The notes under the pieces were generated by a model, which saw only the letters and a program-made list of their open reading frames with translations, did no database searches and was not told the origin of the DNA. A DNA stretch of 64,000 bases from contig JBAQWV010000041.1 of NCBI GenBank assembly GCA_049299095.1, positions 64,278 to 128,277 on the forward strand, read 5' to 3'. Numbering within the stretch: position 1 is the stretch's first letter; each line of letters starts with the position of its first letter. This DNA comes from Anaerolineae bacterium (GTDB lineage: Bacteria; Chloroflexota; Anaerolineae; JAAEKA01). Both the position numbers and the translations under genes were made by a program. Below are positions 37,734 through 62,987 of the stretch, one piece after another.

Positions 37734-37759
37734 GACCGTTGACTTTGGAAGGCAGGACT

Positions 37760-39469: not shown

Positions 39470-39475
39470 ACGAGT

Positions 39476-40594
39476 GTGCGCCAAGGTGATCTTATGATCG
39501 GCGAGCCTGGCCCCAGGCAGCCTTTTTCCCCTAGTGACAACGATCCAGTTGTCGCACCGCAGCCCCGTCCAACGCTGTTAACAAGCTGGCGGCTCTGGTT
39601 GGGGGTGTTATTAAGTGTTCTCTGCCTGGCTCTGGCTGCGCTCAATGTAGATTACCAGGAACTGTGGCAGACGCTGCGTTCAGCCAGCGGGTGGTGGGCC
39701 GGGCTGACCGCAGCATCGGTCCTGGTGACTGGCGTTGCCAAAGCCTGGCGCTGGCAGCTTTTGCTGGCCCCCTCGACCCCCTCCCCGCGCCTGCATCTGC
39801 CGCGCTTATCCAGCATCTGGCTGGCAGGAACCGGCGTCAACCTGGCCCTTCCTGTGCCGCGAGCAGGGGACTTGCTGCGAATTTATCTAACGGGCGAAGC
39901 CGGGCAGGTCAGCAAATCGTTGGTACTGGGCACCCTCGCGGCTGAAAAGCTGCTGGATGCGGTTTTTCTGGCACTGTGTTTTCTGGCCCTGCTGATTTTA
40001 ATGGCCCTGCCGCAAGAAGTTGCGCAACAGCAAGTTTCAACGATGGGTGTAGCGACGGCAATGGTCGCGGCCGCCGTACTCTTGCTCTGGCAGCGGGCGC
40101 GCGTGGTAAGCTGGACGGGCCGGATCGTGCGTTTTTTGCCGTTTGGTTCCAGAGTAACAGACAGTCTGGAGCGCGGTGTTGAAGGCTTGACCGCGCTGCG
40201 CCAGCCGAACCGCCTGCTGGGGCTGGTGCTCGTCACCGCCGCCATCTGGTTTCTGTCCGTTCTGACCAACTACTGGTGCTTTCTGGCGCTGCATATGCCC
40301 GCTTCCTGGGTGCAAAGCCTGTTTGTGTTTGTGGTGCTACAAGTTGGTGTCGCTCTGCCTTCGACACCAGGCAAGTTCGGTGTCTTTCCTTTGCTGTGCC
40401 GTTGGGCGCTTGGTGTTTTTGGTGTTGCCAGCGCGGCTGGACTGGCGTATGGTATCCTGCTTTACGGCCTTGCACCGGTGTTGCTGATGATCTGTGGCGC
40501 GTTGTGCCTTGTCATCGAGGGGTGGCGGTTAGGCAAGCTGCCGACACAGGTGGGCGCAGCGGCCGCGCGCGGCTCGGATGCCGGCGCGTTGTGA
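39476..40594 (+). CDS. flippase-like (LPG-synthase TM domain) membrane protein
   Basis: Polytopic; resembles the PF03706-like family commonly paired with GT2. Confidence 0.5.
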   Translation: MRQGDLMIGEPGPRQPFSPSDNDPVVAPQPRPTLLTSWRLWLGVLLSVLCLALAALNVDYQELWQTLRSASGWWAGLTAASVLVTGVAKAWRWQLLLAPSTPSPRLHLPRLSSIWLAGTGVNLALPVPRAGDLLRIYLTGEAGQVSKSLVLGTLAAEKLLDAVFLALCFLALLILMALPQEVAQQQVSTMGVATAMVAAAVLLLWQRARVVSWTGRIVRFLPFGSRVTDSLERGVEGLTALRQPNRLLGLVLVTAAIWFLSVLTNYWCFLALHMPASWVQSLFVFVVLQVGVALPSTPGKFGVFPLLCRWALGVFGVASAAGLAYGILLYGLAPVLLMICGALCLVIEGWRLGKLPTQVGAAAARGSDAGAL

Positions 40595-40596
40595 GT

Positions 40597-41646
40597 ATGA
40601 CGTTGAAGATTATGGCGGATGTGTTAGCTAAAATACCTCAAGAGACAACCGGGCGGCACTGCTCGGTAATTATTCCCGTCTACAACGGCGCGGCAGTCAT
40701 TACCCGCTGCCTTGATGCGCTCATCGGGCAGACTGTACCAGCCAACCAGTTCGAAGTTATTATCGTAGACGACGGCTCAACCGACCAAACTGTGGCGCAG
40801 GTGGAACGCTGGGCGGCTGAACATCGTTCTATGCTTGTACGCCTGGTGCGGCAGGATCATGCTGGTCCGGCTGCGGCCCGTAATCGTGGTGCGGCTCTGG
40901 CCGCAACGCCGCTCCTGCTCTTCACTGATGCCGACTGCCGCCCGACGCCCAACTGGATCGCGGCCTTGCTGGCTGGTTTTGCCCGCCCGGAGCGCCCCGA
41001 CGGCTTGATGGGCACATATCGCTCCGAGCAGCGCACGCTGGCTGCCCGCTTTGCTCAGATGGAGTTCGAAGATCGCTATCGTCTGATGCGACACAAGCCG
41101 GAGTTGGATTTGGTGGCGACGTATTCAGCCGCGTTTCGCCGCGATGTGTTTGTGCAGACAGGCGGCTTTGATCCCGGCTTTCCTGAAGCCAACAATGAAG
41201 ATGTCGAATTTTCCTACCGCTTGAGTGAGCAAGGCTATCGGATGTACTTTGTGCCAGATGCACAAGTCATTCATCCCCATGCGCCAAGCTGGCTGGGCTA
41301 CGCCCGCACCAAGATGGGCCGCGGTTACTGGCGAATGCTGGTCTATCGTCGCTATCCGAGCAAGGCGCTCAAGGATACCTATACGCCCCAGGTGCTGAAG
41401 CTGCAAATTCTGCTGGCTCCGCTAATGCTGTTAGGCGTGGTGCTGGCACTGCTGCGGCGTCGGCCTGATCCCCTGCTGCTGGCTACGCCCTTTTTGGCGA
41501 CTGCTGTACCTTTTACCGCTTTTGTTGCTTCGCGCGACCCCGTGGTGGCCGCGGTTTCCCCTTACGGGCTTTGGCTGCGCTCGATGGCTTTCGGCATTGG
41601 TATTGCCAAGGGCCTCCTGGCCGGTTGGCGCCAGAGACAGGATTGA
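40597..41646 (+). CDS. family 2 glycosyltransferase with C-terminal TM helices
   Basis: CSVIIPVYNGAAVITRCLDAL...VIIVDDGSTD DxD region; start ATG at 40597, in frame within ORF 40276..41646. Confidence 0.8.
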   Translation: MTLKIMADVLAKIPQETTGRHCSVIIPVYNGAAVITRCLDALIGQTVPANQFEVIIVDDGSTDQTVAQVERWAAEHRSMLVRLVRQDHAGPAAARNRGAALAATPLLLFTDADCRPTPNWIAALLAGFARPERPDGLMGTYRSEQRTLAARFAQMEFEDRYRLMRHKPELDLVATYSAAFRRDVFVQTGGFDPGFPEANNEDVEFSYRLSEQGYRMYFVPDAQVIHPHAPSWLGYARTKMGRGYWRMLVYRRYPSKALKDTYTPQVLKLQILLAPLMLLGVVLALLRRRPDPLLLATPFLATAVPFTAFVASRDPVVAAVSPYGLWLRSMAFGIGIAKGLLAGWRQRQD

Positions 41647-43035
41647 ATGTGTTTTATGAAAAGGATTTTTGATTGGCGGTGGCAGATTGGCATGTGTATA
41701 GGGACTATATTGCTGGCTGCGTGCAGTCAGCCCATAGACCGGCAGGCTCTTTTATTAACTTCGCCCTCTGATTCTTCTCCCCATTTAGTCACTCATGCTG
41801 AAGACAGTGCGCCGGCTGAATCTATCGAACCTACCGTGGTCTTGGTTGAGCCTGAATTGCCTGTTGTAGCACCGGAGACAAGTGTTCCCGCAACCGAGTC
41901 AACAGCAACGCCCTTAGCCGCTCCTGTTACACCGGAAGCAACCGCGGAGCCAGCAGCGCGGCTTACACCGACCGTGGTAGCCATGCGCACGCTGGAGCCG
42001 CTGGTGCCCACGGTGGTAGCTGTGCCGCAGCCTGACCCAATTGCTACCTTACCGACCGACCAAGGCGCAGCGACCAACGAGAACGCTATGGTTGCTGCCT
42101 TGCCGCGCCACGCGCGCAGCCGCGTGGGTGTGGGGGTGCCGCTCTATGTAACGAAGTTTGAGTTCGACGCCAGCCTGGCGAAGCAGCTCGGTATGGGGTG
42201 GTATCTCGATTGGAATATTGATGCAACCCCGGTACAGCTGGATGGGCTGAAGTACGCCCAGCTTTATTCCATGCGCGGCGGCAATATCCCGCTCAAGCTG
42301 GATATGATCGCTGACATCGCCGCGGCCAACCCGGGAGCGTTGTGGCTGGCTGGCAACGAGCCGGACGTGGTCTGGCAGGACAACCAGACGCCGGAACACT
42401 ACGCGGCGCTATACCATGAGTTTTACACCGCGGTCAAGGCTGCCGATCCTACCGCGCAAGTAGCAATTGCCGGTGTCTCACAGGTAACACCGCTACGGCT
42501 GCAATATCTGGAAGCGATCATGGCAGCCTACGAACAAGCCTACGGCGAGCCGTTGCCAGTAGATGTATGGAATGTTCATACGTTTATTCTGCGCGAAGAA
42601 CGCGGCTCGTGGGGCGTCGGTATTCCGCCCGGCTTTGACGCCGTAGATCAGGGCATTTTGTGGGAAATCACCGATCACGACAATCTGGAGCTATTCCGTC
42701 AACAGATCATTGACTTTCGTCGCTGGATGGCAAAGCACGGCCAGCGTGACAAGCCCTTGATCGTGACCGAATTCGGGATTTTGATGCCCGCGGAGTACGG
42801 ATTTCCCCCGGAACAGGTAGCCGCGTTTATGACTGCTACCTTCGATTATCTGCTTACTGCCACCGATGATCAAATCGGCTACGAGGCTGATGCCAACCGA
42901 TTGGTACAGCGTCTGTTGTGGTACAGCTTGAGCGACAGCGTGTACCCCACCGGCAATCTGGCAGATTTACAGACCGGTGAACTAACAAGCTTGGGCGAGG
43001 TCTTTGCGGCTTACACCACCAAGTTGGAAGATTAA
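41647..43035 (+). CDS. secreted/lipoprotein glycoside hydrolase (GH5-like catalytic-core fold, PF11790-like)
   Basis: Lipobox-like LLAAC; Pro/Thr/Ala linker; WLAGNEPD (acid/base) and IVTEFG (nucleophile) motifs. Confidence 0.6.
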   Translation: MCFMKRIFDWRWQIGMCIGTILLAACSQPIDRQALLLTSPSDSSPHLVTHAEDSAPAESIEPTVVLVEPELPVVAPETSVPATESTATPLAAPVTPEATAEPAARLTPTVVAMRTLEPLVPTVVAVPQPDPIATLPTDQGAATNENAMVAALPRHARSRVGVGVPLYVTKFEFDASLAKQLGMGWYLDWNIDATPVQLDGLKYAQLYSMRGGNIPLKLDMIADIAAANPGALWLAGNEPDVVWQDNQTPEHYAALYHEFYTAVKAADPTAQVAIAGVSQVTPLRLQYLEAIMAAYEQAYGEPLPVDVWNVHTFILREERGSWGVGIPPGFDAVDQGILWEITDHDNLELFRQQIIDFRRWMAKHGQRDKPLIVTEFGILMPAEYGFPPEQVAAFMTATFDYLLTATDDQIGYEADANRLVQRLLWYSLSDSVYPTGNLADLQTGELTSLGEVFAAYTTKLED

Positions 43036-43089
43036 TCGTAAGCTAAACCAGAAGATCGCATGTGATGGAATGATAACAGGAGATATCTT

Positions 43090-45396
43090 ATGAAACGCCT
43101 GCTTAATCTAGCCTTGTTGACAACCTTGCTGGCATCGCTTTTCCTGCTGCCGACTTCTGTTGTCCAGGCTGATACGGATGTTCCGCCGCCAACCAACTGC
43201 TTGTATCCCTCAGCCGCAGATCGCTTTGGCATAACGGTGTACTCCTCCGATGAAATCACCCGCTACAACGTGACTCCATTGTCAGCCGGACGCTATCTGA
43301 ATTGGCGCGCCGATCTGACGCCTCCCCGCCCGAACGCCATACCGTATTATTTCATGGTACGTGTGGGGGAAAACTCATTTTTTCCCAATGTGGATACTTT
43401 GAAATCCGTTGCTTTCAACAATCCCGGCTCTACCTGGATCGTAGGGAATGAAGCGGATGTGATCTGGCAGGATAACACCACGCCCGCAGCTTATGCGCGT
43501 GTCTATCACACGGTCTATAACGCGATTAAGTCAATTGATCCCACAGCCAAGTTTGTCATAAGCGGTGTTGTTCAGGTTTCACCGTTGCGTTTACATTGGC
43601 TTGATTTGGTGTGGGATAGCTATTATTCCATGTACGGTACGGAGATTCCTGTTGATATCTGGAATATCCATACTTATATAGCAAATGAGATGCATCAGGA
43701 ATGGGGATTTGAAATTCCCCCAGGCATTCCTAATGCTGTTGGATATTCCAATCATCCGGGTACCGATTGGAGCGAAGTAGCAATCACCGGAGCCAGTGGT
43801 GGCACCATTCATCAAAGTCGCATTCCCGGGGCAAAAGCGACATTTGCGTTTCATGGAGCAGACGTGACTTTGTATCTGTGGACAGGGCCTGACGCAGGTA
43901 TTGCAGAAATTTATGTTGATCAAGTGGCAGCGCCAGTGGCCGAAGTAGACCTGTACTCCCAGACGCCAGCCTCAATTGAGTATACCCTCACCGGTTTGGT
44001 CGCTCCAGGCGGTATTCTGACGGACAGACACAATATTCGCGTGCAGGTTACAGGACGTCGCAACAGCGCAGCAACCGATACATGGATCAAGGTGGATGCT
44101 GTTGCCGCACCTTCAACGGCCAGCCTGCCTGGGGGGCGTTTTGAGGATAACAGCCCGCTGCGGGCGCGTATCATTACCTCGATTGATGCTCACGATAACC
44201 TGGAAGTGATCGCCCAGCAAATTCTCGATTTTCGCCAGTGGATGCTGGAGCATGGTCAGCGCAACAAGCCGCTTATCAACACAGAGCACGGCATCCTGAT
44301 GACCGAAGACCTCGGCTTTGACTATACGCGCGTTCGCACCTTCATGCTCAACAGCTTTAATCTTTTCCTCAACCAACTCGTGGATACCAACCTCGGCTAT
44401 CCCGCGGACGATAACCGTCTGTTGCAGGAATGGTTCTGGTTTGCTCTGGCCGTGGACGATTTTGAAGGTCGCACCACAGCAACCGGATTATTCAGCGAAG
44501 CGACGCGCACCATCAAGCCACTCGGCACAGACTTTAGTAATTATGTCAGCGCGTTGGCCCAGAATTACACCGATCTGGAAGTCTATGCGGGCCAGGCCAC
44601 GCCCTACTGGCCGATTTTTGCCGGCCAGTCCAGCTTATTGCATATCGAAGCGTTGCTGCGCAATCGTGGTACTATAGCCAGTGGGCCTTTCAATGTGAAT
44701 TTCCGCGCCGGCAACGGCACTTTGTTGCAAGCCCTGCCGAATCCTGGCTTGCCCAAACGCTTCGATCCTGGGTACATCGTTCCGGTCAGTTACGACTGGG
44801 TCGTACCGATGACCGCCGGACGCGGCATCAAGATCATTGCCGACGAAGAAAACGTTGTGCCGGAGCCATGCAACCCCAACAACGAATATTACCTATCGAT
44901 TCCTTTCCAGTCAGGAACCGATCTGGCGCTAGTCAATCTGCGTACCAATCCTGCCCCGCTGTCCCCAATTCGTCCAGACACCACCACCACGATCCGCTTG
45001 CAAGTTGACTTGCGCAACCTCGGCGGCGTCGGCACCTCTGCCTCACAAGTGCAGGTCAAGTTTTGGCACGGTAACCCCGATGCTGGCGGTCAGCTCATCG
45101 GCACACAAACCTTCACCCCGGCCAATACCACCCTGCCCGTTACCGTCACGCTGGACTGGCCCGATCGTGGTGTCGGACAGTACGAAATTTACGCGCGTGT
45201 GGACACTGTCGCGGGCGACACCAACTTGCAAAACAACACACAGCACCTGACTGTGCTACAATCCGCTACACTATTCAGTTTCCCAATCACAAAATATAAT
45301 TTCCGTGAGAGCAGTGCCAACGCGGGTTCGTATGCCGAAAACTCTTTGTGGGCCGAACCGCGCGCTGCCTTCCCACTGCCCCAACCGGAGCAATAA
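43090..45396 (+). CDS. secreted glycoside hydrolase paralog (PF11790-like core) with inserted and C-terminal beta-sandwich (CARDB-like) domains
   Basis: Signal peptide; WIVGNEAD and INTEHG motifs homologous to the upstream gene; about 300 aa of extra C-terminal domains; visibly lower GC. Confidence 0.6.
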   Translation: MKRLLNLALLTTLLASLFLLPTSVVQADTDVPPPTNCLYPSAADRFGITVYSSDEITRYNVTPLSAGRYLNWRADLTPPRPNAIPYYFMVRVGENSFFPNVDTLKSVAFNNPGSTWIVGNEADVIWQDNTTPAAYARVYHTVYNAIKSIDPTAKFVISGVVQVSPLRLHWLDLVWDSYYSMYGTEIPVDIWNIHTYIANEMHQEWGFEIPPGIPNAVGYSNHPGTDWSEVAITGASGGTIHQSRIPGAKATFAFHGADVTLYLWTGPDAGIAEIYVDQVAAPVAEVDLYSQTPASIEYTLTGLVAPGGILTDRHNIRVQVTGRRNSAATDTWIKVDAVAAPSTASLPGGRFEDNSPLRARIITSIDAHDNLEVIAQQILDFRQWMLEHGQRNKPLINTEHGILMTEDLGFDYTRVRTFMLNSFNLFLNQLVDTNLGYPADDNRLLQEWFWFALAVDDFEGRTTATGLFSEATRTIKPLGTDFSNYVSALAQNYTDLEVYAGQATPYWPIFAGQSSLLHIEALLRNRGTIASGPFNVNFRAGNGTLLQALPNPGLPKRFDPGYIVPVSYDWVVPMTAGRGIKIIADEENVVPEPCNPNNEYYLSIPFQSGTDLALVNLRTNPAPLSPIRPDTTTTIRLQVDLRNLGGVGTSASQVQVKFWHGNPDAGGQLIGTQTFTPANTTLPVTVTLDWPDRGVGQYEIYARVDTVAGDTNLQNNTQHLTVLQSATLFSFPITKYNFRESSANAGSYAENSLWAEPRAAFPLPQPEQ

Positions 45397-45399
45397 CCT

Positions 45400-46227
45400 A
45401 TGCCTAATCAATCATCATCACCGCAACGCAGTTCTGCTGCGCGCCTTATCAGCTTTGTCTTCGTCGGCATTCTGATTCTGGGTTTTCTAGCCGCACTACC
45501 CGCCGCATGGGCGCTGCCCGCTCAAATCCCTGATTCGCAGACCGTGCCAACATTGACCCCGACGCGCCCCAGCGGCGGCGGCTCACAGCCCACCGCCACA
45601 TCACCTTCCGGCGGCGGTTCGCCCACGAACACCCCCCAACCCGGCGCCACGGCAACCCCCGTGCCGCCCCCCGGCGCCACAGCGACCGCCACACCGCCCC
45701 CCGGCTCCACAGCAACACCGACGCCAACGGCCACCGTCACACCGACTGCGACACCAACGCTGGTGCCCGCGCCGATTCAGCCCGCGTCGCAGTCGTGCTG
45801 GACAATTCCGACCCCCGGCTTCCAGCCAGAGCAGGCGTTGAGCGCGTCTTGGACCGCCGAAAGCGATCAGTACCTGGTGATGCCGGGTCAAACGATTACC
45901 CTGCGTCTGATTGTCAAAAACACCGGCACGAACCAGCTTGCCAACCTGACCGTCTGTAATCCGATCATGACGGGGCTGGTGGTAGGCAAGCCAACAAGCA
46001 CGCAGGGTCGTGTCTGGGTCGAACAGCCCGGCATTGTCGCCCAATTAGGCAACCTGGCAGCTGGCAGCACTGCGCGCATTGACGTTAAGTTGTCCATTCC
46101 TGCCACGCAGCCGCTGGGCGGCGTCATCGAGAATCAAGGCTGGCTGTTCAGCGGCAACCAACGTTCCAGCACCAACCTGCTGACTTGGGCCTTGCCGCCC
46201 GCCTACTTGCCGAAAACAGGGCAGTGA
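45400..46227 (+). CDS. DUF11-like surface protein with N-terminal TM, Pro/Thr-rich linker and LPKTG motif at the extreme C-terminus
   Basis: Ends ...AYLPKTGQ* followed by a TGATAA double stop; no hydrophobic/basic tail after LPXTG. Confidence 0.6.
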   Translation: MPNQSSSPQRSSAARLISFVFVGILILGFLAALPAAWALPAQIPDSQTVPTLTPTRPSGGGSQPTATSPSGGGSPTNTPQPGATATPVPPPGATATATPPPGSTATPTPTATVTPTATPTLVPAPIQPASQSCWTIPTPGFQPEQALSASWTAESDQYLVMPGQTITLRLIVKNTGTNQLANLTVCNPIMTGLVVGKPTSTQGRVWVEQPGIVAQLGNLAAGSTARIDVKLSIPATQPLGGVIENQGWLFSGNQRSSTNLLTWALPPAYLPKTGQ

Positions 46228-46247
46228 TAATCTGTCGGTCAAGACCG

Positions 46248-47735
46248 ATGCACCGTTTTTCGTATCTTGAAAGGCTGCCAATACTGGTCTTCGGACTGGC
46301 ATTGGCAGCCTATGGTTTAACCGCTCCTGCCGGTTTGACATGGGCCAACGCCAGCGCGGACGGTGGCGACCTCGCCACTGCCGCACTAGTACGCGGTGTT
46401 CCCCATCCCACTGGCTACCCCACCTGGACACTGCTGGCAATTCTGTGCAGCAAGCTGCCCTTCGGCGCGCCCATCTGGCGCATCACCCTGCTGTCCATGC
46501 TCAGCGGCGCGGCCGCGGCGGCATTAGTGACAGCCACCGTGCCGCGGTTGCTGGGTTCCCGCAACTTGGCAACTACCATGGCCGCGGCGCTGGCCGGCCT
46601 GACCCTCGCTCTGTCACCACTGCTGTGGGGACAAGCCATTGTCATCGAAGTCTACACGCTGCACGCCGCGCTGGCCGCGGCCATTCTTTGGGCATTAGTG
46701 CGCTGGCAGTCGGCCCCACAGCGGCGGTGGGCCGCCCTGACAGGCGCGTTGTTCGGCGTCGGCCTCGGCAATCACCTAACCCTGATCTGGCTGCTGCCCG
46801 CCGCGCTCGCCGTAGCCTGGCCCCACCGCCGTACCTGGCCGGTCTTTTTGGCTGCGCTGCTGGCCGGGCTGACGGTCTACATCTATTTGCCCCTCGCATC
46901 CGCGGGCAATCCGCCAGTCAATTGGGGCCAGCCGCACACCCTGAACGGCTTCTGGTGGCTCGTATCGGGCCAGTTGTACCACGGCTACGCCTTCGCCGTT
47001 CCGTGGCCGACTGTGCCCGCCCGCGTGGCCGCGTGGACGCGCGAGCTGTGGCGCGACTTCATGCCCTGGGGCGTGATCGCGGCCCTGGCCGGTTTTGGCT
47101 TGCTGTACGCGCGCCAGCGCGCCCTGACACTCGGCATGGCGTTCAGTTTGCTGCTCAGCCTGCTTTGGGCAATCGGCTACAACACCAGCGATTCGCTGCT
47201 ATTTGCCCTGCCCGGCTGGGTTATCATCGCGCTCTGGCTGGGAGTGGGCCTGGCTGCGGCGCTGAACTGGCTGGCCGCGCGTTGGCCGCATCGTCTGGGA
47301 CTGGTCGTGCTGTTGACTGCTGCGCTGGTGCTGGCTCCGGCTGCCCTCCGTTGGCCAAACCTCAACCTGCGCCACGACCAGAATGCAGAACAGTTTTACC
47401 AGCAAGTGCTAGCCGCCCTGGAGCCGGACGCCGTAGTGCTGACCGCGGGTGACCGCGCCACCTTTGCGTTGTGGTATGCACGCTACGGCCTGCGGTTGCG
47501 TCCCGATGTTGCACCAGTCAGCCATGCACTGTGGGCGCTGCCCAGCTATCGCGCCACAGTCATCGCCCAGCACCCCGCGCTGTCCAGCCTGGCCGCCGCG
47601 GATTGGCCCCAATTTACCCAGCCGCTGTATTGGGCGGAAACAGGCGCAGCCCCCCCCGCTCTGCCCGGCCTGACGCCTGTACAGACCGCATCTGGCGATG
47701 GTTGGATCGTGTGGCGCTTGCTCCCCACCGATTGA
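46248..47735 (+). CDS. DUF2723/TMEM260-like polytopic membrane protein (putative GT-C glycosyltransferase)
   Basis: VPHPTGYPT motif after TM1; more than 10 TM helices; start placed at the Met preceding TM1 (the ORF is open from 46185). Confidence 0.55.
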   Translation: MHRFSYLERLPILVFGLALAAYGLTAPAGLTWANASADGGDLATAALVRGVPHPTGYPTWTLLAILCSKLPFGAPIWRITLLSMLSGAAAAALVTATVPRLLGSRNLATTMAAALAGLTLALSPLLWGQAIVIEVYTLHAALAAAILWALVRWQSAPQRRWAALTGALFGVGLGNHLTLIWLLPAALAVAWPHRRTWPVFLAALLAGLTVYIYLPLASAGNPPVNWGQPHTLNGFWWLVSGQLYHGYAFAVPWPTVPARVAAWTRELWRDFMPWGVIAALAGFGLLYARQRALTLGMAFSLLLSLLWAIGYNTSDSLLFALPGWVIIALWLGVGLAAALNWLAARWPHRLGLVVLLTAALVLAPAALRWPNLNLRHDQNAEQFYQQVLAALEPDAVVLTAGDRATFALWYARYGLRLRPDVAPVSHALWALPSYRATVIAQHPALSSLAAADWPQFTQPLYWAETGAAPPALPGLTPVQTASGDGWIVWRLLPTD

Positions 47736-47795
47736 TGTCTGTGCGGGCCATTCTGGCGCTTGCCAGAATGTTTACCCTGTGGTAGGTTACACGTT

Positions 47796-49745
47796 ATGAC
47801 TGTCAACCCTGTTTCTTCTTCCTCACCGCGTCGCTTTTCCTGGAAAACCATCCTGGCCATGCTGGCTATCGTGCTGGCCGTGGTCGCTGTGTTGCTAGCT
47901 GTGCGCGTGATACGCGCGGCCAACGCGGCACGCTCGGCCATGAACGAACTGCAAGTCCTGCAAGACCTCGACCCGGCACTCATCACCAGCCTCGATCCGT
48001 CCACCTTGCGCGATCTGCGTGACCGCTTCGCTCGTCTTGAAGGCGATTTCACCATCATTGAGCGTCAGGCCGGGCCATTTTTGCCCTTGACGCGTCACAT
48101 GGGTTGGCTGCCGCGCTATAGTGCCGAAGCGCAGGCCGCGCCAGCCTTGCTCGATTTAGCGCAGAATGTGGCGACCGCTGGCCGCGCGGGCATGGACGGC
48201 GCAGCGGTGATCGCGGAAGCCCTGAAAGCACAGGAAACTGGCGGCAGCGCACTGGCACGGCTGGTTCCAGCCCTGCAACAGACACAGCCGAGCTGGCAGG
48301 AAGTGGACGATGCACTGGTTGCCGTGGCCGCAGCGCGCAGCCACCTGGATTTGACCAGCCTCGACCCGCGTTTGACCCACCAACTGCAACAGCTCGACAC
48401 CTATTTGCCCCTGCTGCAAACCGGGTCGGCGCTGGCGCGCCTGGCCCCGCAGTTGCTCGGCGCAGAAGGCGCAAAGACCTACCTGGTATTGCCACAGAAC
48501 AGCGATGAACTGCGCCCCACTGGTGGCTTCATCAGCGGCGTCGGCCTGCTGCCACTTGACCGCGGCGAGCTGGGTGAGGTGGATTTCGAGGACAGCTACA
48601 CGATCTACAACGACCAGGTGGATCACCCACTGGCCCCCGCCGATCTGGAAGCGACGATGGGCGCGCAGATTTTACTCTTCCGCGACGCCAATTGGTCGGT
48701 GGATTTCCCGGCGTCCGCGGGCGTGGCCCAGGCGCTCTATCAACTCGATACCGGTCGCAGCACCGATGGCGTTATTGCTTTTGATCTGGTCGCCACGCAA
48801 CGCTTGATGGCCGGGCTGGAGCCGCTGACCCTGCCAGGCTATCAGGAGCCGCTCACCACCGGCAACGTCCTCGCGGCCCTGCGCGCGGTCTGGAACGAAC
48901 CATTAACCACGGAAGGCACCGCCAGTCAAAGCACCACCTCCGACTGGTGGCTGCATCGCAAGGACTTCATGGGCGATCTGGCCGCGGCCGCGCGTACCAA
49001 ACTAGAAGCCGGACAGGTGGACATGGGCAAGCTGGCGCAAGCGTTGTACAGCAGCTTACAGGAAAAGCATCTCCTGCTGGCGATGAATGACCCCGCCGTG
49101 CAGGCCTTGCTGGATGAAGCCGGTTGGAGCGGCAAGGTGACGCCGGGCGATGGTGATTATCTGTTAGTGGTAGATAGCAACATCGGCTGGAACAAGGTCA
49201 ACAGCGTGGTGCAACGCAACACCAACTACACCATTACGCCGAACGCCGACGGCAGCGCCCGTGCCCAACTAGAATTGGTCTATCAGCATACCGGCACAAC
49301 CTCCGCCGACCTGTGTGTACACGTGGCGCGCTACGGCGATTCCTATGAGGACATGGTGCGCCGCTGCTATTTCAACTATCTACGCGTGCTGGTACCAGAC
49401 GGGGCAAAACTGGTGCAGGCGGAGGGTTTCAACGAGCCAACGGCCAGCACGCAGCGCGGTGAGCGTAACACCACGCAGTTCGCCGGTAATCTGACCGTGC
49501 CGCCAGGTGAAACCCGTCGCGTCCTGTTGACCTACGACCTGCCCGCGGGTCTGGTCACGCCCAACGCCTATCATCTGCGCATCCAAAAGCAGCCGGGCAT
49601 TCCAGCCTGGCCGGCGCGCGTGGTGGTGGCTGATCCCGTGGGGGGCTGGCAAACTGCTGCCGCGGGGAGCAAACCAACCGACGCGGGCTTGCTGACACCG
49701 GTCGAGCTGAGCCGCGATACCGATTTGGTCTGGACGCGACCCTAG
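47796..49745 (+). CDS. membrane-anchored DUF4012-like protein
   Basis: N-terminal TM; YLVLPQNSDELRPTGGFISGVGLL motif recalled as DUF4012-like; 649 aa. Confidence 0.45.
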   Translation: MTVNPVSSSSPRRFSWKTILAMLAIVLAVVAVLLAVRVIRAANAARSAMNELQVLQDLDPALITSLDPSTLRDLRDRFARLEGDFTIIERQAGPFLPLTRHMGWLPRYSAEAQAAPALLDLAQNVATAGRAGMDGAAVIAEALKAQETGGSALARLVPALQQTQPSWQEVDDALVAVAAARSHLDLTSLDPRLTHQLQQLDTYLPLLQTGSALARLAPQLLGAEGAKTYLVLPQNSDELRPTGGFISGVGLLPLDRGELGEVDFEDSYTIYNDQVDHPLAPADLEATMGAQILLFRDANWSVDFPASAGVAQALYQLDTGRSTDGVIAFDLVATQRLMAGLEPLTLPGYQEPLTTGNVLAALRAVWNEPLTTEGTASQSTTSDWWLHRKDFMGDLAAAARTKLEAGQVDMGKLAQALYSSLQEKHLLLAMNDPAVQALLDEAGWSGKVTPGDGDYLLVVDSNIGWNKVNSVVQRNTNYTITPNADGSARAQLELVYQHTGTTSADLCVHVARYGDSYEDMVRRCYFNYLRVLVPDGAKLVQAEGFNEPTASTQRGERNTTQFAGNLTVPPGETRRVLLTYDLPAGLVTPNAYHLRIQKQPGIPAWPARVVVADPVGGWQTAAAGSKPTDAGLLTPVELSRDTDLVWTRP

Positions 49746-49779
49746 CGCGCCCCGTGGCGCACCCATTCAGGAGCAATTT

Positions 49780-50259
49780 GTGCGAGGACGGTTCCTTCTT
49801 TTCTGCTTGATCATTTGTCTGAGCCTCAGCGCGGTCTGGGCCAGTACGGCCGCGGCCAGTGGTCGCCCGCAGGGCAAGCCCGGCCAGCCAATTGTAATTA
49901 GCTGGTCCACCGAGACCGAAGTCAACACCGCCGGGTTCAATGTGTACCGCGCGCTGTCCGAGGATGGCCCGTGGGAAAAAATCAACGACCGGCTAATCCC
50001 CGGTTCGTCCGATCCTTTGCGCGGCGGCAACTACACCTTCACCGATAGTAAGGTGCAAGCGGGCATCACCTACTGGTACGAACTGGAGGAAGTCGAACTG
50101 AGCGGCCAAACCACGCGGCTGGAGCGCACTAAAGCCACCGCGCGCGGCACTGGCTTGTTCGATGGCCTGCAATGCTTCGGTGGCTTGTCCGCGCTGACCG
50201 TCTTCAGCCTGGGATTGGTCTGGACGCAGCGGCGCAAGGTAGCTTATGGCTATTCCTGA
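49780..50259 (+). CDS. small secreted FN3-like protein with C-terminal hydrophobic anchor plus RRK
   Basis: Signal peptide, FN3-like core (ISWSTETEVNTAGFNVYRAL...), C-terminal CFGGLSALTVFSLGLVWTQRRK; 14-nt overlap with the downstream radical SAM gene. Confidence 0.5.
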   Translation: MRGRFLLFCLIICLSLSAVWASTAAASGRPQGKPGQPIVISWSTETEVNTAGFNVYRALSEDGPWEKINDRLIPGSSDPLRGGNYTFTDSKVQAGITYWYELEEVELSGQTTRLERTKATARGTGLFDGLQCFGGLSALTVFSLGLVWTQRRKVAYGYS

Positions 50260-52923: not shown

Positions 52924-53043
52924 ACGAAAAATATAACGAAGGAAAGCTGGGGACCAACTTTCCTTCTTATGAGCTTACGCGTGAATTGCCGAAAAATCCG
53001 GCTATAAAATTCGATAAAGAGCCACGACATTGTGGCCGGGGCC

Positions 53044-53172
53044 TTAGTTATTACCGGGCAGCAGCCAATCGGGGCTGGGGGAAACAGTGCCCAGCGTTAC
53101 CTTCTGGAGTCGCTGATGCTTGGTCAAAGTCGGGGTCTGGTAGGTCTTCTTGACAGGCGTGCTCTGATTCAC
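53044..53172 (-). CDS. lasso-peptide-like RiPP precursor (42 aa): MNQSTPVKKTYQTPTLTKHQRLQKVTL|GTVSPSPDWLLPGNN
   Basis: GTG start 6 nt after GGAGGT. Leader carries YxxPxL (YQTPTL) and Thr at -2; predicted core begins with Gly1 with Asp at position 8. Lies between the PqqD-like and kinase genes. The ORF track's longer form (to 53256) lacks an RBS. Confidence 0.6.
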   Translation of the reverse strand: MNQSTPVKKTYQTPTLTKHQRLQKVTLGTVSPSPDWLLPGNN

Positions 53173-53273
53173 AATGATACCTCCGTGTTGGTTAATTGCG
53201 CTTAGGGCGCTGTTCGCGATACGACGTATGATGCTGCCACCGGGCAGCGAAGTCACATTTCACAGTTGACAAA

Positions 53274-53607: not shown

Positions 53608-53637
53608 AATTATAGCATAGCGGGAAAGAATTTGTCA
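53608..53637 (-). promoter_or_regulatory. strong sigma70-like promoter (TTGACA-18 nt-TATAAT) driving the PqqD-precursor-kinase operon
   Basis: Consensus hexamers on the minus strand about 45 nt upstream of the PqqD start, in an AT-richer 310-bp intergenic region. Confidence 0.55.
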
Positions 53638-53868
53638 AGCCAGTTGCGCAGTTTAGCTTGTCTGATGCTTGTACAATGCAAATCCCGATCTGCTTAATAA
53701 CGCACTGTCACAGTATAATCCAGTTTGCTAAACTTGCAAACCAGCGATCGGTTTTGGCAGGCGGCAGGCCAAAGCCTCAAGCACCCCGATGCTCAGGGTG
53801 CTTGAAATAACATTGGCACAACACCAGTTTCAACGCACACAGTTACCAGACAGCAAGGTTCCTCTGTC

Positions 53869-56033: not shown

Positions 56034-56819
56034 TCAGGCGATTATCTGTTGATGCGCGTAAAGCAGCGGCAACTTGGCGGGTTTGATCCTGAATTTCGTA
56101 CCGTGGTTGTGGCCGGTACGGGCGTCAATGTCCACAAACACATGACCGTTTTCAAGTCCATCCAGCAATCCAGCAAATTTGAAGCCTTGCAAAATCATAA
56201 TACTGGAGTACCGAAAATATTCTTTGCCCGCTTCGAGTTTTCTTTCTGCCCGCACGAAAAAACTGTTGAGTAATTTTGTGCCTGCTTTGTTGCGCAGATC
56301 CTCGAATCCCCAATAAGGCTGTGGATCGAGTTCATGCAAGCCAACGCGGCCTGCTACATCTGCAAGCCAGAGATCATGCCTGGAATTGACTGCGTCAGGA
56401 TTGAAAGAGATCAATACTTTGTTCTCACTACGATCAATAGACACTTTAAAGCCGCGATCGCTGTGCGTCGCTCCCGTAATAGTCTGCCGGAAGCTCATTT
56501 CTGTGAACGCATAGCGCTCACCGGCTTTCTGGTGTGACCAGCCATACTGAGGTAGTAACACCGCTGGCACAAAACGTAGTGCACGCGGGGAAGGTTCCAT
56601 GTGAAAGAGCGTCACCAGCGAGTTGCTATCTACGCGGTGGGCTTTCAGTTCCCATTCGGCAGCGTTCGGGATGGGAAGGTTGTTTTCCTGAATTCCCAAC
56701 AGATCCTCCAGCGTATTGCCTATACTGCCCGCGTTGTCAGGGCGAGATCCGGCAATCCATCCCCTCGCTTTAATTTTGAGCAATTCCTCAATCAGGGTTT
56801 CTTTGGTATAGAGTTTCAT
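56034..56819 (-). CDS. type II restriction endonuclease, MvaI/BcnI family
   Basis: MKLYTKETLIEELLKIKARGW... about 260 aa resembling MvaI/BcnI; ATGA start/stop overlap with the upstream methyltransferase; lower GC than flanks. Confidence 0.6.
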   Translation of the reverse strand: MKLYTKETLIEELLKIKARGWIAGSRPDNAGSIGNTLEDLLGIQENNLPIPNAAEWELKAHRVDSNSLVTLFHMEPSPRALRFVPAVLLPQYGWSHQKAGERYAFTEMSFRQTITGATHSDRGFKVSIDRSENKVLISFNPDAVNSRHDLWLADVAGRVGLHELDPQPYWGFEDLRNKAGTKLLNSFFVRAERKLEAGKEYFRYSSIMILQGFKFAGLLDGLENGHVFVDIDARTGHNHGTKFRIKPAKLPLLYAHQQIIA

Positions 56820-57766
56820 TGATTGATTGGCGGTCGCCAGAAATCCAAAAGGTATTCGAACGTTGTACCCATCGTAATGTAATTGGAAGGCCAGCCAAAA
56901 ATGCCGACCCGGTTCACGATGTTGGTGCGATCCCAAATGATTGTGTTGCGCAACTCGTAGCCACGTTTGCGCAATTCCTCAACCAGGGCAATATGGATCG
57001 TGATGCGCTCATTTTCCCACCACATATCAGGTACATTGATGACGCAGTGGCCCTTGGGCTTCAAGAGCGGCAATAGCTGCTCAAAGATATCACCCATCGC
57101 TTGCGTATACTCTTCGAGCGGCATCGTGCCGAGGTCGCGCGGGTCTTGCGAATACTGCTCGACTTTGTCGAATTGTTCGTTCTTGCGCTCTTCACCCCGC
57201 CGCGACTTGTTCTTGCGTTTGCGGTTCAGTAAATTCGCGTATGGCGGGGATGTCCAGATCAAGCTGACACTTCCGGGGTGCAGGTAGTTGGCAATATGCG
57301 AAGCATCATCCTGGACAGCAATTTGCTGCGCCTGGTTGAAGAAATTATCGCTGGTGAGTCGCTGTTCGCACAAGTTGATGTATTTCTCTTGCAAGTCAAA
57401 GCCAACCGCATTGCGATTTAGTTCCTGTGCTGCGACCAACGACGTTCCGCTACCGACGAATGGATCAAGTACCAACTCACCTTCATGCGTGAACAATTCA
57501 ATGACCCGTTTGGCAAGAGAAACTGGAAACGTCGCGGGGTGCAAATCTTTATTGCGCACATCCTTGCCACTGTATGTAAACTGCCAAACACCTAGCTGAC
57601 TTTTAATCCAATCCTTGGCCGTCATACAGTTCAGATGATTGGCAGCACACTGGCAACTGCGTGTGGCGGGAACGGCCAGATGCAGCCGATAAAGCGGTGT
57701 ATTTTCGCGGATAGTGCGCGGCAGTGTCGTAGCTTCTGTGGGAGTTAAAATATCTACTGTTTCCAT
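56816..57766 (-). CDS. DNA N4-cytosine methyltransferase (M.MvaI-like, SPPY motif)
   Basis: FxGSGT motif I (DPFVGSGTS) and SPPY motif IV (IWTSPPYANL); start at internal Met of ORF 56816..57841; lower GC. Confidence 0.7.
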   Translation of the reverse strand: METVDILTPTEATTLPRTIRENTPLYRLHLAVPATRSCQCAANHLNCMTAKDWIKSQLGVWQFTYSGKDVRNKDLHPATFPVSLAKRVIELFTHEGELVLDPFVGSGTSLVAAQELNRNAVGFDLQEKYINLCEQRLTSDNFFNQAQQIAVQDDASHIANYLHPGSVSLIWTSPPYANLLNRKRKNKSRRGEERKNEQFDKVEQYSQDPRDLGTMPLEEYTQAMGDIFEQLLPLLKPKGHCVINVPDMWWENERITIHIALVEELRKRGYELRNTIIWDRTNIVNRVGIFGWPSNYITMGTTFEYLLDFWRPPINQ

Positions 57767-57854
57767 AAATCGTTTACCTGCTTCAAATAAGACGGTCTGC
57801 CCGGAATTATAACATCCGTTCTCTGAATGGGCGAATGACACGGGATATGCCTGT

Positions 57855-60984: not shown

Positions 60985-61312
60985 GCAAAAGTCATCGGCC
61001 GCACCGCGGCCCCAGCCCGTGCAGCAAAGTTGCTGCCTCATGGATCTATCAAGGAGGTGACATCCCCAAGATCTGGTGACGCGCGAGCTTCGGCGGGAAG
61101 CCTCGCGGACGCTGTATCCTGCTAAATGCAGCGCCCCTCCAGTCTGCACCCCCACTGCTGGCTTCGGCCAGTTCCCCATAACCGCCCAACCCGTGACCTG
61201 GACGCATGCTGTGGAAAAGCGGTTTCGGCGCTCATGCCCGGATGTCTGTCAACCATCTGACCGCAAAGTTCTGTTTTCCGTGGTGTGCTCAATTTCCAAG
61301 GAGTTGCCTTTC

Positions 61313-62413
61313 ATGGCAAGCGTAACTTACAAGAACGTCTACAAGCGCTGGGGCGATGTCATCGCCGTTAACGATTTCAACCTGGACATTCAAGACAAAG
61401 AATTCATGGTATACGTCGGTCCTTCCGGCTGCGGCAAATCCACCACCCTGCGCCTGCTGGCTGGCCTTGAAGAGATCAGCGACGGCCAGATTTTGATCGG
61501 TGACCGCGTGGTCAATGACGTGCCGCCCAAGGATCGTGACATCGCGATGGTATTCCAGAGCTACGCGCTCTATCCGCACATGTCGGTATACGACAACATG
61601 GCCTTCGGCTTGAAGCTGCGCAAGATGCCGAAGGAAGAAATTGATCGCCGCGTCAAGGAAGCTGCCGACGTTCTGAGCATTACCCAGTACCTGGATCGCA
61701 AGCCGAAGGCCCTGTCCGGCGGCCAGCGCCAGCGTGTGGCCGTGGGCCGCGCCATCGTGCGTAACCCCAAGGTCTTCCTCTTTGACGAGCCGCTCTCCAA
61801 CCTGGACGCCAAACTGCGCGTGCAGACCCGCGCCGAAATCACCAAACTGTGGCAAAACCTGGGCACCACCTTCATCTATGTGACCCACGACCAGGTGGAA
61901 GCCATGACGATGGCGACCCGCATCGCAGTCATGAAAGATGGCCTCTTGCAGCAGTGCGATACCCCGCAATATCTGTACGACCATCCCAACAACATCTTCG
62001 TCGCCGGCTTCATCGGCAGCCCCTCCATGAATTTCTTCGATGCCACCCTGGTTGAGGCCGATGGCAAGATGTACGCCGACGGCGGCACGTTCCGCCTGGA
62101 AGTGCCCGGCAAGAACCTGGCGCTGGCTCAGAAGCACAAGGGCAAGCAGATCGTTTTCGGTATTCGCCCCGAAGACATTCAGAGCCGCGAATTTACACCG
62201 CCCGGCATCGCACCCGCCTACATGAAATCCAAGGTGGACGTGACGGAAATGATGGGTAGCGAAATCTTCGCCTACCTGTTGAGTGGCAAGAAGAGCTTCG
62301 TCGCCCGCCTTGACCCGCGCACACGCGCCCACGTCGGCGAAGACCTCGATCTGGTAGTCAACATGGACAACATGCACATGTTCGATCCCAAGACCGAGCA
62401 GCGCCTCGTCTAA
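61313..62413 (+). CDS. sugar ABC transporter ATP-binding protein (MalK/UgpC/MsmK family)
   Basis: Walker A GPSGCGKST, signature LSGGQRQR, Walker B FLFDEPLSNLD, C-terminal TOBE-like domain; RBS AAGGAG. Confidence 0.9.
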   Translation: MASVTYKNVYKRWGDVIAVNDFNLDIQDKEFMVYVGPSGCGKSTTLRLLAGLEEISDGQILIGDRVVNDVPPKDRDIAMVFQSYALYPHMSVYDNMAFGLKLRKMPKEEIDRRVKEAADVLSITQYLDRKPKALSGGQRQRVAVGRAIVRNPKVFLFDEPLSNLDAKLRVQTRAEITKLWQNLGTTFIYVTHDQVEAMTMATRIAVMKDGLLQQCDTPQYLYDHPNNIFVAGFIGSPSMNFFDATLVEADGKMYADGGTFRLEVPGKNLALAQKHKGKQIVFGIRPEDIQSREFTPPGIAPAYMKSKVDVTEMMGSEIFAYLLSGKKSFVARLDPRTRAHVGEDLDLVVNMDNMHMFDPKTEQRLV

Positions 62414-62489: not shown

Positions 62490-62987
62490 TTGCTCACCTT
62501 ACTCGCTGAAACGCAACCCATCGCCGCGCGGCCATTAACCCTGCCAGCCGGCTACGTTCTGCGCCCCATGCACGCCCCCGACGTGCCCGCGCTGGCCGCG
62601 CTCTATTTTGCCGCCTACGACCGCACCATCGTGCCCGACCTGCCCGCCGCCCTGGAGGAAATGCAACAAACCTTCGCACACGAATACGGCCAGTTGCTCC
62701 TGGCTTGCTCGCCTGTGTTGATCCACGACGCCATCATCGTCAGCGCAGTGATGACAGTAGCGCATGCTCCGTGGCCCGACACCCCCGCCGGCCCATTCGT
62801 CATCGAAGTCTTCACACATCCAGCCCACCGACAGCGCGGCCTGGCGCGCGCCGGATTGATCGCCGCAGCGCAGGCCCTCCACCAGCAAGGCTGGCGCACG
62901 CTCGCCCTCCGCGTTGATCCCGACAACACAGCTGCAACGACACTCTACACCGCGCTGGGCTTTCATGTATGGCAAGCTCCCCCGTAA
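62490..62987 (+). CDS. GNAT-family N-acetyltransferase
   Basis: HRQRGLARAGL...TLALRVDPDNTAATTLYTALGF acetyl-CoA-binding motif A region; 165 aa. Confidence 0.75.
   Translation: MLTLLAETQPIAARPLTLPAGYVLRPMHAPDVPALAALYFAAYDRTIVPDLPAALEEMQQTFAHEYGQLLLACSPVLIHDAIIVSAVMTVAHAPWPDTPAGPFVIEVFTHPAHRQRGLARAGLIAAAQALHQQGWRTLALRVDPDNTAATTLYTALGFHVWQAPP

Follow-up and report, generated by a model that had tools for sequence, protein, structure and literature searches.

A peptide with a lasso-type leader in a putative PqqD-dependent modification module of Chloroflexota

A 64,000-nucleotide (nt) stretch of the genome of an Anaerolineae bacterium (positions 64,278 to 128,277 of contig JBAQWV010000041.1, assembly GCA_049299095.1), referred to here as the window, contains on its minus strand a 42-codon open reading frame (ORF) that was earlier read, from the sequence alone, as the precursor of a lasso peptide. 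Based on the comparison of this ORF and its neighbours with related loci, we consider it probable (about 70%) that it is a genuine precursor or substrate of an uncharacterised PqqD-dependent peptide-modification module conserved in Chloroflexota, and not a lasso peptide. The conserved unit consists of a gene for a PqqD-family protein, the peptide gene, a hairpin, a gene for a ScmC-family P-loop protein with an HprK/PEPCK-type fold and, in convergent orientation, a gene for a B12-binding radical S-adenosylmethionine (SAM) enzyme (Table 1). The lasso reading itself is largely refuted by conservation.

The precursor peptide and its conservation

The ORF is translated as MNQSTPVKKTYQTPTLTKHQRLQKVTLGTVSPSPDWLLPGNN. 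The GGAGGT ribosome-binding site, 6-nt spacer, GTG start codon and 42-codon frame described in the sequence-only reading were all confirmed on the minus strand, where the TAA stop terminates at 53044. Each of the residue features it listed is present in the translated peptide, namely YQTPTL (Y11-Q-T-P14-T-L16), Thr(-2) (T26), Gly1 (G28), Asp8 (D35, if G28 is core residue 1) and Trp9 (W36). The description of the ORF as a precursor-type peptide beside a PqqD gene also holds; the upstream gene matches Pfam PqqD. The intergenic gaps flanking the peptide gene are 101 and 120 nt.

About 50 distinct homologues of the peptide were found, and a profile built from the locus peptides matched 41 called peptides in the protein collection. 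In every locus fetched, a short ORF, either uncalled or annotated as "hypothetical", lies between the PqqD gene and the gene for the 346-amino-acid (aa) P-loop protein. When the conservation of this short ORF in related genomes was checked, homologous peptides were found at the equivalent position in all related loci that extend far enough. They share the near-invariant segment Y-x-x-P-x-L-x-K-[H/Y]-Q-R-L-Q-K-V-T-L-[G/A]-T. Within the box of residues 18–29, the variation among Chloroflexota sequences is limited to His/Tyr at position 19 and Gly/Ala at position 28, and one peptide from the Candidate Phyla Radiation (CPR), P0107, has Leu in place of Gln20. At the other end of the peptide, W-L-x-P-G is fixed at 1–2 residues from the C-terminus and is preceded by a linker that varies in length; the Amarolinea-like clade has N-A-L-P-G in its place. 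Two loci carry more than one peptide gene: tandem duplicate precursors (...SGESWLQPGQ and ...SDDSWLQAGTK) lie ahead of the kinase gene in L038 (70-514), and L046 (33-352) has a different peptide, of the YETPTLSKRE(K/R)LS type, in duplicate.

The precursor peptide is under strong purifying selection. Among 28 distinct nucleotide versions of the 19-codon box, pairwise comparison gave 2965 synonymous and 1007 non-synonymous codon differences, and the differences at codon positions 1, 2 and 3 numbered 1172, 536 and 3229, respectively. Six Arg codons and five Leu codons are in use in the box, while the amino acid stays constant. These statistics indicate that the peptide is translated.

A 70-aa form of the ORF is present in the window as well, but the earlier preference for the short form as the gene is borne out by the comparison of loci. 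The arrangement of GGAGG plus start codon is kept in homologous loci (with ATG as the start in L007, L009, L010 and L012). L008 and L011 have an in-frame stop about 10 codons upstream of the short start, and in L001 an in-frame stop precedes the GTG with no other start codon in between, so that no long form is possible there.

The lasso-peptide question

In lasso precursors, the conserved leader residues are spaced as Tyr-17/Pro-14/Leu-12/Thr-2 (PMC10368454). The Tyr, Pro, Leu and Thr of the window peptide lie at exactly -17/-14/-12/-2 relative to Gly28 and are invariant in the family, which bears out the lasso-type leader of the sequence-only reading; the leader is homologous to those of lasso peptides. 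YQTPTL is accordingly the presumed PqqD-binding segment.

The enzymes that would close a lasso ring were searched for in the window and in related loci. A Pfam scan covered 40 large ORFs across the 64 kb (a few, e.g. 61076-62413 and 62490-62987, were left unscanned), and gave zero matches to an Asn_synthase-type cyclase (PF00733). A transglutaminase-type B2 protease had zero Pfam matches in these 40 ORFs or in the annotated homologous loci, and the 101- and 120-nt gaps flanking the peptide leave no room for a B2 gene there. The cyclase is also absent from the Pfam-annotated gene tables of L001-L003, and a lasso cyclase used as a tblastn probe found no match in the window or in the family loci. 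This probe came from L043 6700-11231 (metagenome contig WNGM01000689.1), a genuine lasso cluster that was picked up in the same metagenome scan and served as a positive control. L043 encodes a PqqD protein, an HprK-related kinase, an Asn_synthase cyclase, the precursor KKPYETPVLTKLGKVEEVTQGVVGAGSDPLLIGSQ and an NTP_transf_5 nucleotidyltransferase; the cyclase, kinase and NTP_transf_5 genes flank the precursor gene, and the L043 leader is similar to that of the window family (KKPYETPVLTKLGKVEEVTQG/VVGAGSDPLLIGSQ). On the NCBIfam model lasso_leader_L3 (NF033521; cut-off 19), the window peptide scored 13.2 bits and other family members scored 15.5 bits or had no match, whereas the L043 control precursor passed with 28.3 bits.

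The presumed ring acceptor is not conserved either. Asp or Glu occurs at core positions 7-9 in only 14 of the 48 distinct tails (the residues after KVTL), and 13 tails lack acidic residues altogether; Asn8, or Asp at position 10, 11 or 14, is found in others. In three tails of the Amarolinea-like clade (ATTPPPLNFPNALPGQ), Ala1 replaces Gly1. The Asp8 of the window peptide is thus one state of a variable linker position, and a macrolactam cannot be the conserved fate of the family.

With no cyclase or B2 found, an unconserved acceptor and a lasso-leader score below the cut-off, the proposed Gly1-Asp8 macrolactam is not upheld, and the role of Trp9 as a plug falls with it. The argument that four independent class-specific features are unlikely to arise by chance is correct in one part only. 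The ORF is indeed beyond chance, but the features are not independent markers of the class: three of the four belong to the leader, were inherited with it and are linked to the binding of PqqD, whereas the fourth, Asp8, is variable. In addition, a YETPKI leader is present in a non-lasso cluster with PqqD and a radical SAM/SPASM protein, where the peptide starts with MKYETPKI, and Y-x-x-P therefore marks PqqD-dependent leaders generally and not lasso leaders specifically. Because the cyclase, the B2 protease and a conserved acceptor are all missing, we do not count the peptide as a member of the lasso class.

Neighbouring genes and distribution of the module

The synteny of the PqqD, peptide, ScmC-like and B12-radical SAM genes was recognized in 12 loci from genomes or metagenome-assembled genomes and in about 20 metagenome loci. 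The module was seen in Anaerolineae, Caldilineales and the Amarolinea-like clade of the Chloroflexota, and its four genes stay together down to about 35% kinase identity. The coordinates of the features in the window, together with those of the CPR peptides, are collected in Table 1.

Table 1. Features of the peptide module in the window, and related CPR peptides in their own loci
Feature	Position	Strand	Remarks
B12-binding radical SAM enzyme, 546 aa	50246..51886	plus	convergent with the kinase gene; Pfam domains in the text
ScmC-family P-loop protein, 346 aa	51883..52923	minus	HprK/P- and PEPCK-type fold; putative peptide kinase
13-bp stem-loop and U-rich run	52938..52966	minus	between peptide and kinase genes; from sequence and comparison of loci
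Precursor peptide gene	53044..53172	minus	42 codons and TAA stop; translation MNQSTPVKKTYQTPTLTKHQRLQKVTLGTVSPSPDWLLPGNN
WLLPG, residues 36-40	53053..53067	minus	W-L-x-P-G motif; alignment and tail comparison
KHQRLQKVTLGT, residues 18-29	53086..53121	minus	near-invariant box with Thr-x-Gly/Ala-Thr junction; alignment and codon analysis
YQTPTL, residues 11-16	53125..53142	minus	Y-x-x-P-x-L motif at -17 to -12 relative to Gly28; Y, P and L invariant in alignment
Ribosome-binding site GGAGGT	53184-53179	minus	6-nt spacer ATCATT, then GTG at 53172-53170
PqqD-family peptide chaperone (recognition element), 94 aa	53274..53558	minus	Pfam PqqD, E 8e-18
Sigma-70-type promoter-like site TTGACA-18-TATAAT	53609..53638	minus	12/12 matches, TG extension; consensus match only, putative function
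CPR peptide, L017	3559-3738
CPR peptide, L018	5244-5423
CPR peptide, L019	8001-8177

The PqqD protein belongs to the chaperones that act as recognition elements (RREs) for peptides that are made on the ribosome and modified after translation (RiPPs), and is closest to the B1 proteins of lasso clusters. Among proteins of solved structure, those nearest to it are the lasso B1 proteins TbiB1 (5v1u, E 5e-11), 9x90 and TfuB1. It scored 51.6 bits on the NCBIfam model lasso_PqqD_Bac (cut-off 80) and 45.9 bits on ScmD (TIGR04248; cut-off 100).

The 346-aa P-loop protein found 67 homologues when used as a query, and all of those with a named source come from Chloroflexota. No variation was seen among 47 sequences at His162, the P-loop G180-x-G-K183-T or Asp200-Asp201, all of which align with the active-site segment of HprK/P; the fold, catalytic His, Walker-A motif GxxGxGK(S/T) and Asp-Asp pair of the HprK/P-PEPCK superfamily are all present. 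The protein scored 16.7 bits on the NCBIfam model ScmC (TIGR04249; cut-off 125), and the broader Pfam family PF27840 (ScmC family) matches its homologues. Judging from a profile comparison with the L043 lasso kinase (256 columns, probability 94%, E 1e-7), it is homologous to the kinases of genuine lasso clusters. The HprK-type kinases of lasso clusters act on linear precursors before cyclisation, and a kinase together with a nucleotidyltransferase phosphoglycosylates the lasso peptide pseudomycoidin (PMC8498205); in the case of BsfK, the B1 protein speeds the phosphorylation of core Ser3 (PMC10368454).

The wider ScmC-like family comprises 1376 cluster representatives at E<=1e-30. In three scanned relatives (P0246, P0284 and P0311), the ScmC-like domain is fused to an N-terminal family 2 glycosyltransferase (GT2) that best resembles MftF, TuaG and EpsD. 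P0349 and P0360 may carry the same fusion, as judged only from an N-terminal extension of about 230 aa. The most distant ScmC homologue (34% identity) is that of the P0067 locus (JGI 3300056388), which contains genes for PqqD, NTP_transf_5, two GT2, one GT4 and a small radical SAM protein, with no lasso cyclase. We take this locus to resemble the 'HPr-rel-A' PqqD/kinase/nucleotidyltransferase systems of polysaccharide loci.

The radical SAM enzyme has a B12-binding domain (PF02310, 4.5e-19), a Radical_SAM domain (PF04055, 5.3e-16) and the cluster motif CPFHCNFC (CxxxCxxC); no SPASM domain was seen in the Pfam and NCBIfam scans. None of the NCBIfam equivalog models matched it over the cut-off, and the best ones (BchE-like, CUAEP-tail, ApyD, HpnR and RiPP C-methyltransferase) were all far below. 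Of the proteins with solved structures, OxsB, AprD4 and TokK are nearest to it (E 1e-7 to 1e-9). B12-radical SAM enzymes can methylate or cross-link peptide residues. Genes for such enzymes occur in RiPP clusters, e.g. the biphenomycin-like clusters (PMC12257519).

The radical SAM gene is adjacent to the kinase gene in every locus that is long enough; in the window, the stop codons of the two overlap by 4 nt. In the main clade, the radical SAM gene is also the last gene of an envelope or exopolysaccharide-type operon (37739-50259 on the plus strand of the window), where its start lies within the end of the preceding gene (14 nt of overlap in the window). The order in this operon is BY-kinase, flippase-like protein, EpsD/MftF-like GT2, glycosyl hydrolase, CARDB, DUF11, TMEM260-like GT-C glycosyltransferase, DUF4012 and a 159-aa membrane protein (p159), in which, judged by eye, a signal sequence is present at the N-terminus and a membrane anchor at the C-terminus. 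Throughout the main Chloroflexota clade, the operon shows synteny from the glycosyl hydrolase gene on; its first three genes (BY-kinase, flippase-like and GT2) fall outside the loci fetched. However, the distant clade L040-L042 (kinase 36% and radical SAM enzyme 52% identical) has kept the four-gene module, with no homologues of p159, DUF4012 or TMEM260 detected in its loci, the 20-kb L040 included, where a GH2 gene follows the radical SAM gene. PqqD genes and small peptides likewise accompany the nearest outgroup B12-radical SAM enzymes (32-34% identity), and one of these clusters is that of the MKYETPKI peptide. For both of these reasons, the radical SAM enzyme seems to belong to the peptide module. 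One outgroup locus, L048 (3009-8599), contains two PqqD genes, a radical SAM/SPASM gene, a 48-aa peptide (MKYETPKIKKLDWPPESEDEIIEIEALMKQASHNTVICGPPGGQGGSS) and an MFS transporter; its 266-aa protein was tried as a ScmC-like candidate and rejected (probability 0.4%). Another, L049 (1003-8741), contains genes for a PqqD protein, an ABC transporter and four additional radical SAM proteins.

The promoter-like site lies 50 nt upstream of the PqqD start. The hairpin between the peptide and kinase genes, GAAGG(A/G)AAGUUG-loop-CA(A/G)CUU(U/C)CCUUC, recurs at this place in about 20 homologous loci and shows a compensatory change from A:U to G:C between clades; it is probably an attenuator or an mRNA-stabilising element. 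In the Amarolinea-like clade, another hairpin occupies the equivalent place. A second candidate hairpin just after the stop codon (52990-53050) was rejected as no better than shuffled sequence (z 0.17), and a scan of the whole window at Rfam gathering thresholds found no known RNA family.

Proposed function, alternatives and related systems

In the explanation that we favour, the PqqD protein would bind the Y-x-x-P-x-L segment and present the peptide to both enzymes. By analogy with BsfK, it would present the junction region to the kinase, and this enzyme would phosphorylate a hydroxyl near the junction, most likely that of the invariant Thr29 (+2) or of Ser/Thr31 (+4), as BsfK does on Ser3. 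The B12-radical SAM enzyme may install a C-methyl group or a radical cross-link. Its most likely target region would be W-L-x-P-G, because this motif stays near the C-terminus while the linker varies in length; the invariant box is the alternative. No macrolactam would be made, and the module appears to encode no dedicated leader protease or exporter, so the product may stay linear and possibly intracellular or envelope-associated. In evolutionary terms, the arrangement resembles the leader, B1 and kinase recognition unit of a lasso pathway in which the cyclase and B2 protease were either lost or never present, and which became linked with a radical SAM enzyme. The product has a reasonable chance of defining a new class of RiPP or cofactor. 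More tentatively, and with the balance somewhat against it, the peptide could be the founding example of a new class of linear, phosphorylated and radical-modified RiPPs with housekeeping-like conservation in filamentous Chloroflexota, perhaps a peptide-derived cofactor or a (phospho)glycosylated component of envelope glycan assembly and not an antibiotic.

Several points weigh against this explanation. The chemistry is deduced wholly from enzyme families, no modification has been observed, and no NCBIfam equivalog model is over its cut-off for the PqqD protein, the kinase or the radical SAM enzyme. Conservation of the invariant box exceeds that of typical leaders, an unusual situation for a leader that is to be discarded. 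Given the overlap with the preceding gene, the substrate of the radical SAM enzyme could lie in the envelope operon (p159, DUF4012 or the TMEM260-like glycosyltransferase). Lastly, contigs of the CPR (Candidatus Woesebacteria-type) encode peptides with the same box, Y..P.L.K[HY]QRLQKVTLGTVS, and a different, longer tail, ...GCSGDWKTPSKWH. Their neighbours are genes for a DUF4153 protein and a PMT_2 GT-C glycosyltransferase, and in L019 there is a 10-nt overlap between the peptide and the start of PMT_2. As far as the contigs extend (about 3.5-8 kb), no PqqD, ScmC-like kinase or B12-radical SAM gene was found around the peptides, so that the box may have a purpose unrelated to these enzymes.

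It is hardly conceivable that the ORF arose by chance or that the 70-aa form is the true product, even though that form does exist in the window: codon-level purifying selection is restricted to the short form, whose ribosome-binding site and start are conserved, and the upstream extension is unconserved and interrupted by stop codons in relatives. A true lasso peptide, with the leader cut after Leu27, an 8-residue Gly1-Asp8 ring, Trp9 as a plug and the cyclase and B2 encoded elsewhere in the genome, would account for the exact leader spacing, Thr-2, Gly1 and Asp8, for the lasso-B1-like PqqD protein and the lasso-kinase homology, and for weak sub-threshold matches to the lasso_cyano and lasso_leader_L3 models. 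We regard it as very improbable, since neither cyclase nor B2 turned up in the scanned large ORFs of the window or the homologous loci examined, whereas the control locus has its cyclase adjacent; the acceptor and even Gly1 vary among the tails, and the window peptide stays under the lasso-leader cut-off that the control exceeds.

Two further alternatives concern the same genes. The peptide may chiefly be a substrate or partner for (phospho)glycosylation by the envelope glycan machinery, with the kinase priming a Thr or Ser in the VTLGT(V)S box for nearby glycosyltransferases and the radical SAM enzyme belonging functionally to the envelope operon. The CPR peptides beside PMT_2, overlapping its start in one case, the GT2 fusions of several ScmC-family relatives, the P0067 locus with its PqqD, NTP_transf_5, GT2, GT4 and radical SAM genes, and the pseudomycoidin precedent (PMC8498205) make a (phospho)glycosylated product a serious alternative, and both a TMEM260/PMT_2-like GT-C and an EpsD/MftF-like GT2 are found in the operon that ends with the radical SAM gene. 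It is nevertheless unlikely. The L040-L042 loci retain the four-gene module with no TMEM260-type gene detected, and the module contains no NTP_transf_5 gene; GT-C enzymes act outside the membrane, and no export signal could be recognised in the peptide by inspection. The CPR PMT_2 and the window TMEM260-like enzyme show no significant pairwise similarity, so that the glycosyltransferase link exists at the superfamily level only. Less likely again is an unmodified small protein or regulator, e.g. a binding partner of PqqD or an enzyme subunit, whose neighbouring enzymes have other substrates. The extreme conservation of the 12-residue box, more like that of a functional protein segment, and its persistence in CPR genomes with no such enzymes nearby would fit such a role. 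However, PqqD proteins of the lasso-B1-like type are known to be chaperones of peptides destined for modifying enzymes, the four genes show close co-conservation, and tandem duplicate precursors, as in L038, are typical of RiPP substrates. The precursor or substrate of a PqqD-dependent modification module thus remains our preferred interpretation.

The module shares parts with several known systems. The clusters for phosphorylated lasso peptides with split B1/B2 and an HprK-type kinase (paeninodin PadeK, BsfK and pseudomycoidin) have in common with it a PqqD-type B1 chaperone, Y-x-x-P-x-L at -17 to -12, Thr-2, Gly at +1 and an HprK-family kinase, which there acts on the linear precursor and here is related, at the 94% probability given above, to the L043 kinase. 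They differ in that the window module is without the Asn-synthetase-like cyclase, the transglutaminase-like B2 and the ABC exporter; the ring acceptor is unconserved in its family, a B12-radical SAM enzyme is present instead, and the peptide lacks the C-terminal Ser that is the classical kinase target. The SynChlorMet (SCM) cassette of TIGRFAMs/NCBIfam (ScmC, ScmD, ScmE and ScmF) shares a PqqD relative (ScmD-like, 45.9 bits), a ScmC-family HprK-like protein (by PF27840 on the homologues) and radical SAM chemistry. However, it has two PqqE-like SPASM radical SAM enzymes (ScmE and ScmF), whereas the window module has a single adjacent B12-binding one, and a precursor is evident in the window module. 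Because its scores are far under the ScmC and ScmD cut-offs (16.7/125 and 45.9/100) and its radical SAM enzyme is of a different type, the module is not a SynChlorMet cassette. To our knowledge, SynChlorMet is a bioinformatically defined system with no precursor identified.

In the PqqD-dependent radical SAM pathways to cofactors, i.e. pyrroloquinoline quinone (PqqA/D/E) and mycofactocin (MftA/B/C and MftF), there is likewise a small, highly conserved peptide whose C-terminal motif is fixed, along with a PqqD chaperone and a radical SAM enzyme, and no exporter. An MftF-like GT2 lies near the window module, and MftF-like GT2 domains are fused to ScmC relatives elsewhere. This situation differs from that of the window module, in which the radical SAM enzyme is of the B12 type and not SPASM, a kinase is present, and peptidases and other cofactor-maturation genes are absent; no redox-enzyme partners were identified for it. 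The B12-radical SAM enzymes that tailor RiPPs (TIGR03975-type C-methyltransferases and the biphenomycin-like clusters, PMC12257519) share the B12-binding and radical SAM domains and an RRE-assisted peptide substrate, but the window enzyme has no equivalog match and is related to OxsB, AprD4 and TokK at the E-values given above only. By analogy, the module may be described as the front end of a phosphorylated-lasso cluster (leader, B1 and kinase) joined to an RRE-dependent radical SAM pathway, and would represent an RRE-guided peptide modification. A search of the full-text literature, with subscription journals outside its coverage, found no description of this module, nothing on SynChlorMet or the string QRLQKVTL, and ScmC only as unrelated acronyms; neither the RRE-Finder paper nor the 2025 RRE paper mentions kinases or B12.

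For genome mining, this case means that lasso hallmarks and an adjacent PqqD gene are insufficient for a lasso call, and that searches keyed on Y-x-x-P-x-L, Thr-2, Gly1 and Asp8 would mis-file this peptide family. The leader/B1 pair would be a portable recognition module that is reused by other chemistries. A concrete substrate peptide can now be proposed for a ScmC-type HprK-like protein, a family for which we found no functional or substrate assignment beyond the HprK-type kinases of lasso clusters. The precursor gene is widely conserved and unannotated in most genomes, its hosts include abundant, mostly uncultured Chloroflexota of wastewater and sediment, and its conservation across classes suggests a physiological role. 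The four-gene unit is compact and open to direct reconstitution. Once the product is identified, a new cofactor or component of the envelope could come to light.

Two other regions of the window were noted. A type II restriction-modification pair (56034-57841, minus strand), an MvaI/BcnI-family endonuclease and an N4/N6 DNA methylase, lies in a patch of low GC content (0.50 compared with about 0.60-0.64), and relatives carry Peptidase_C25 genes at this position upstream of PqqD; on both grounds, the pair was probably inserted by horizontal transfer. Another radical SAM/SPASM protein, unrelated to the first and 344 aa long, is encoded beside an AMP-binding enzyme at 16611-17645 on the plus strand, about 36 kb from the precursor gene.

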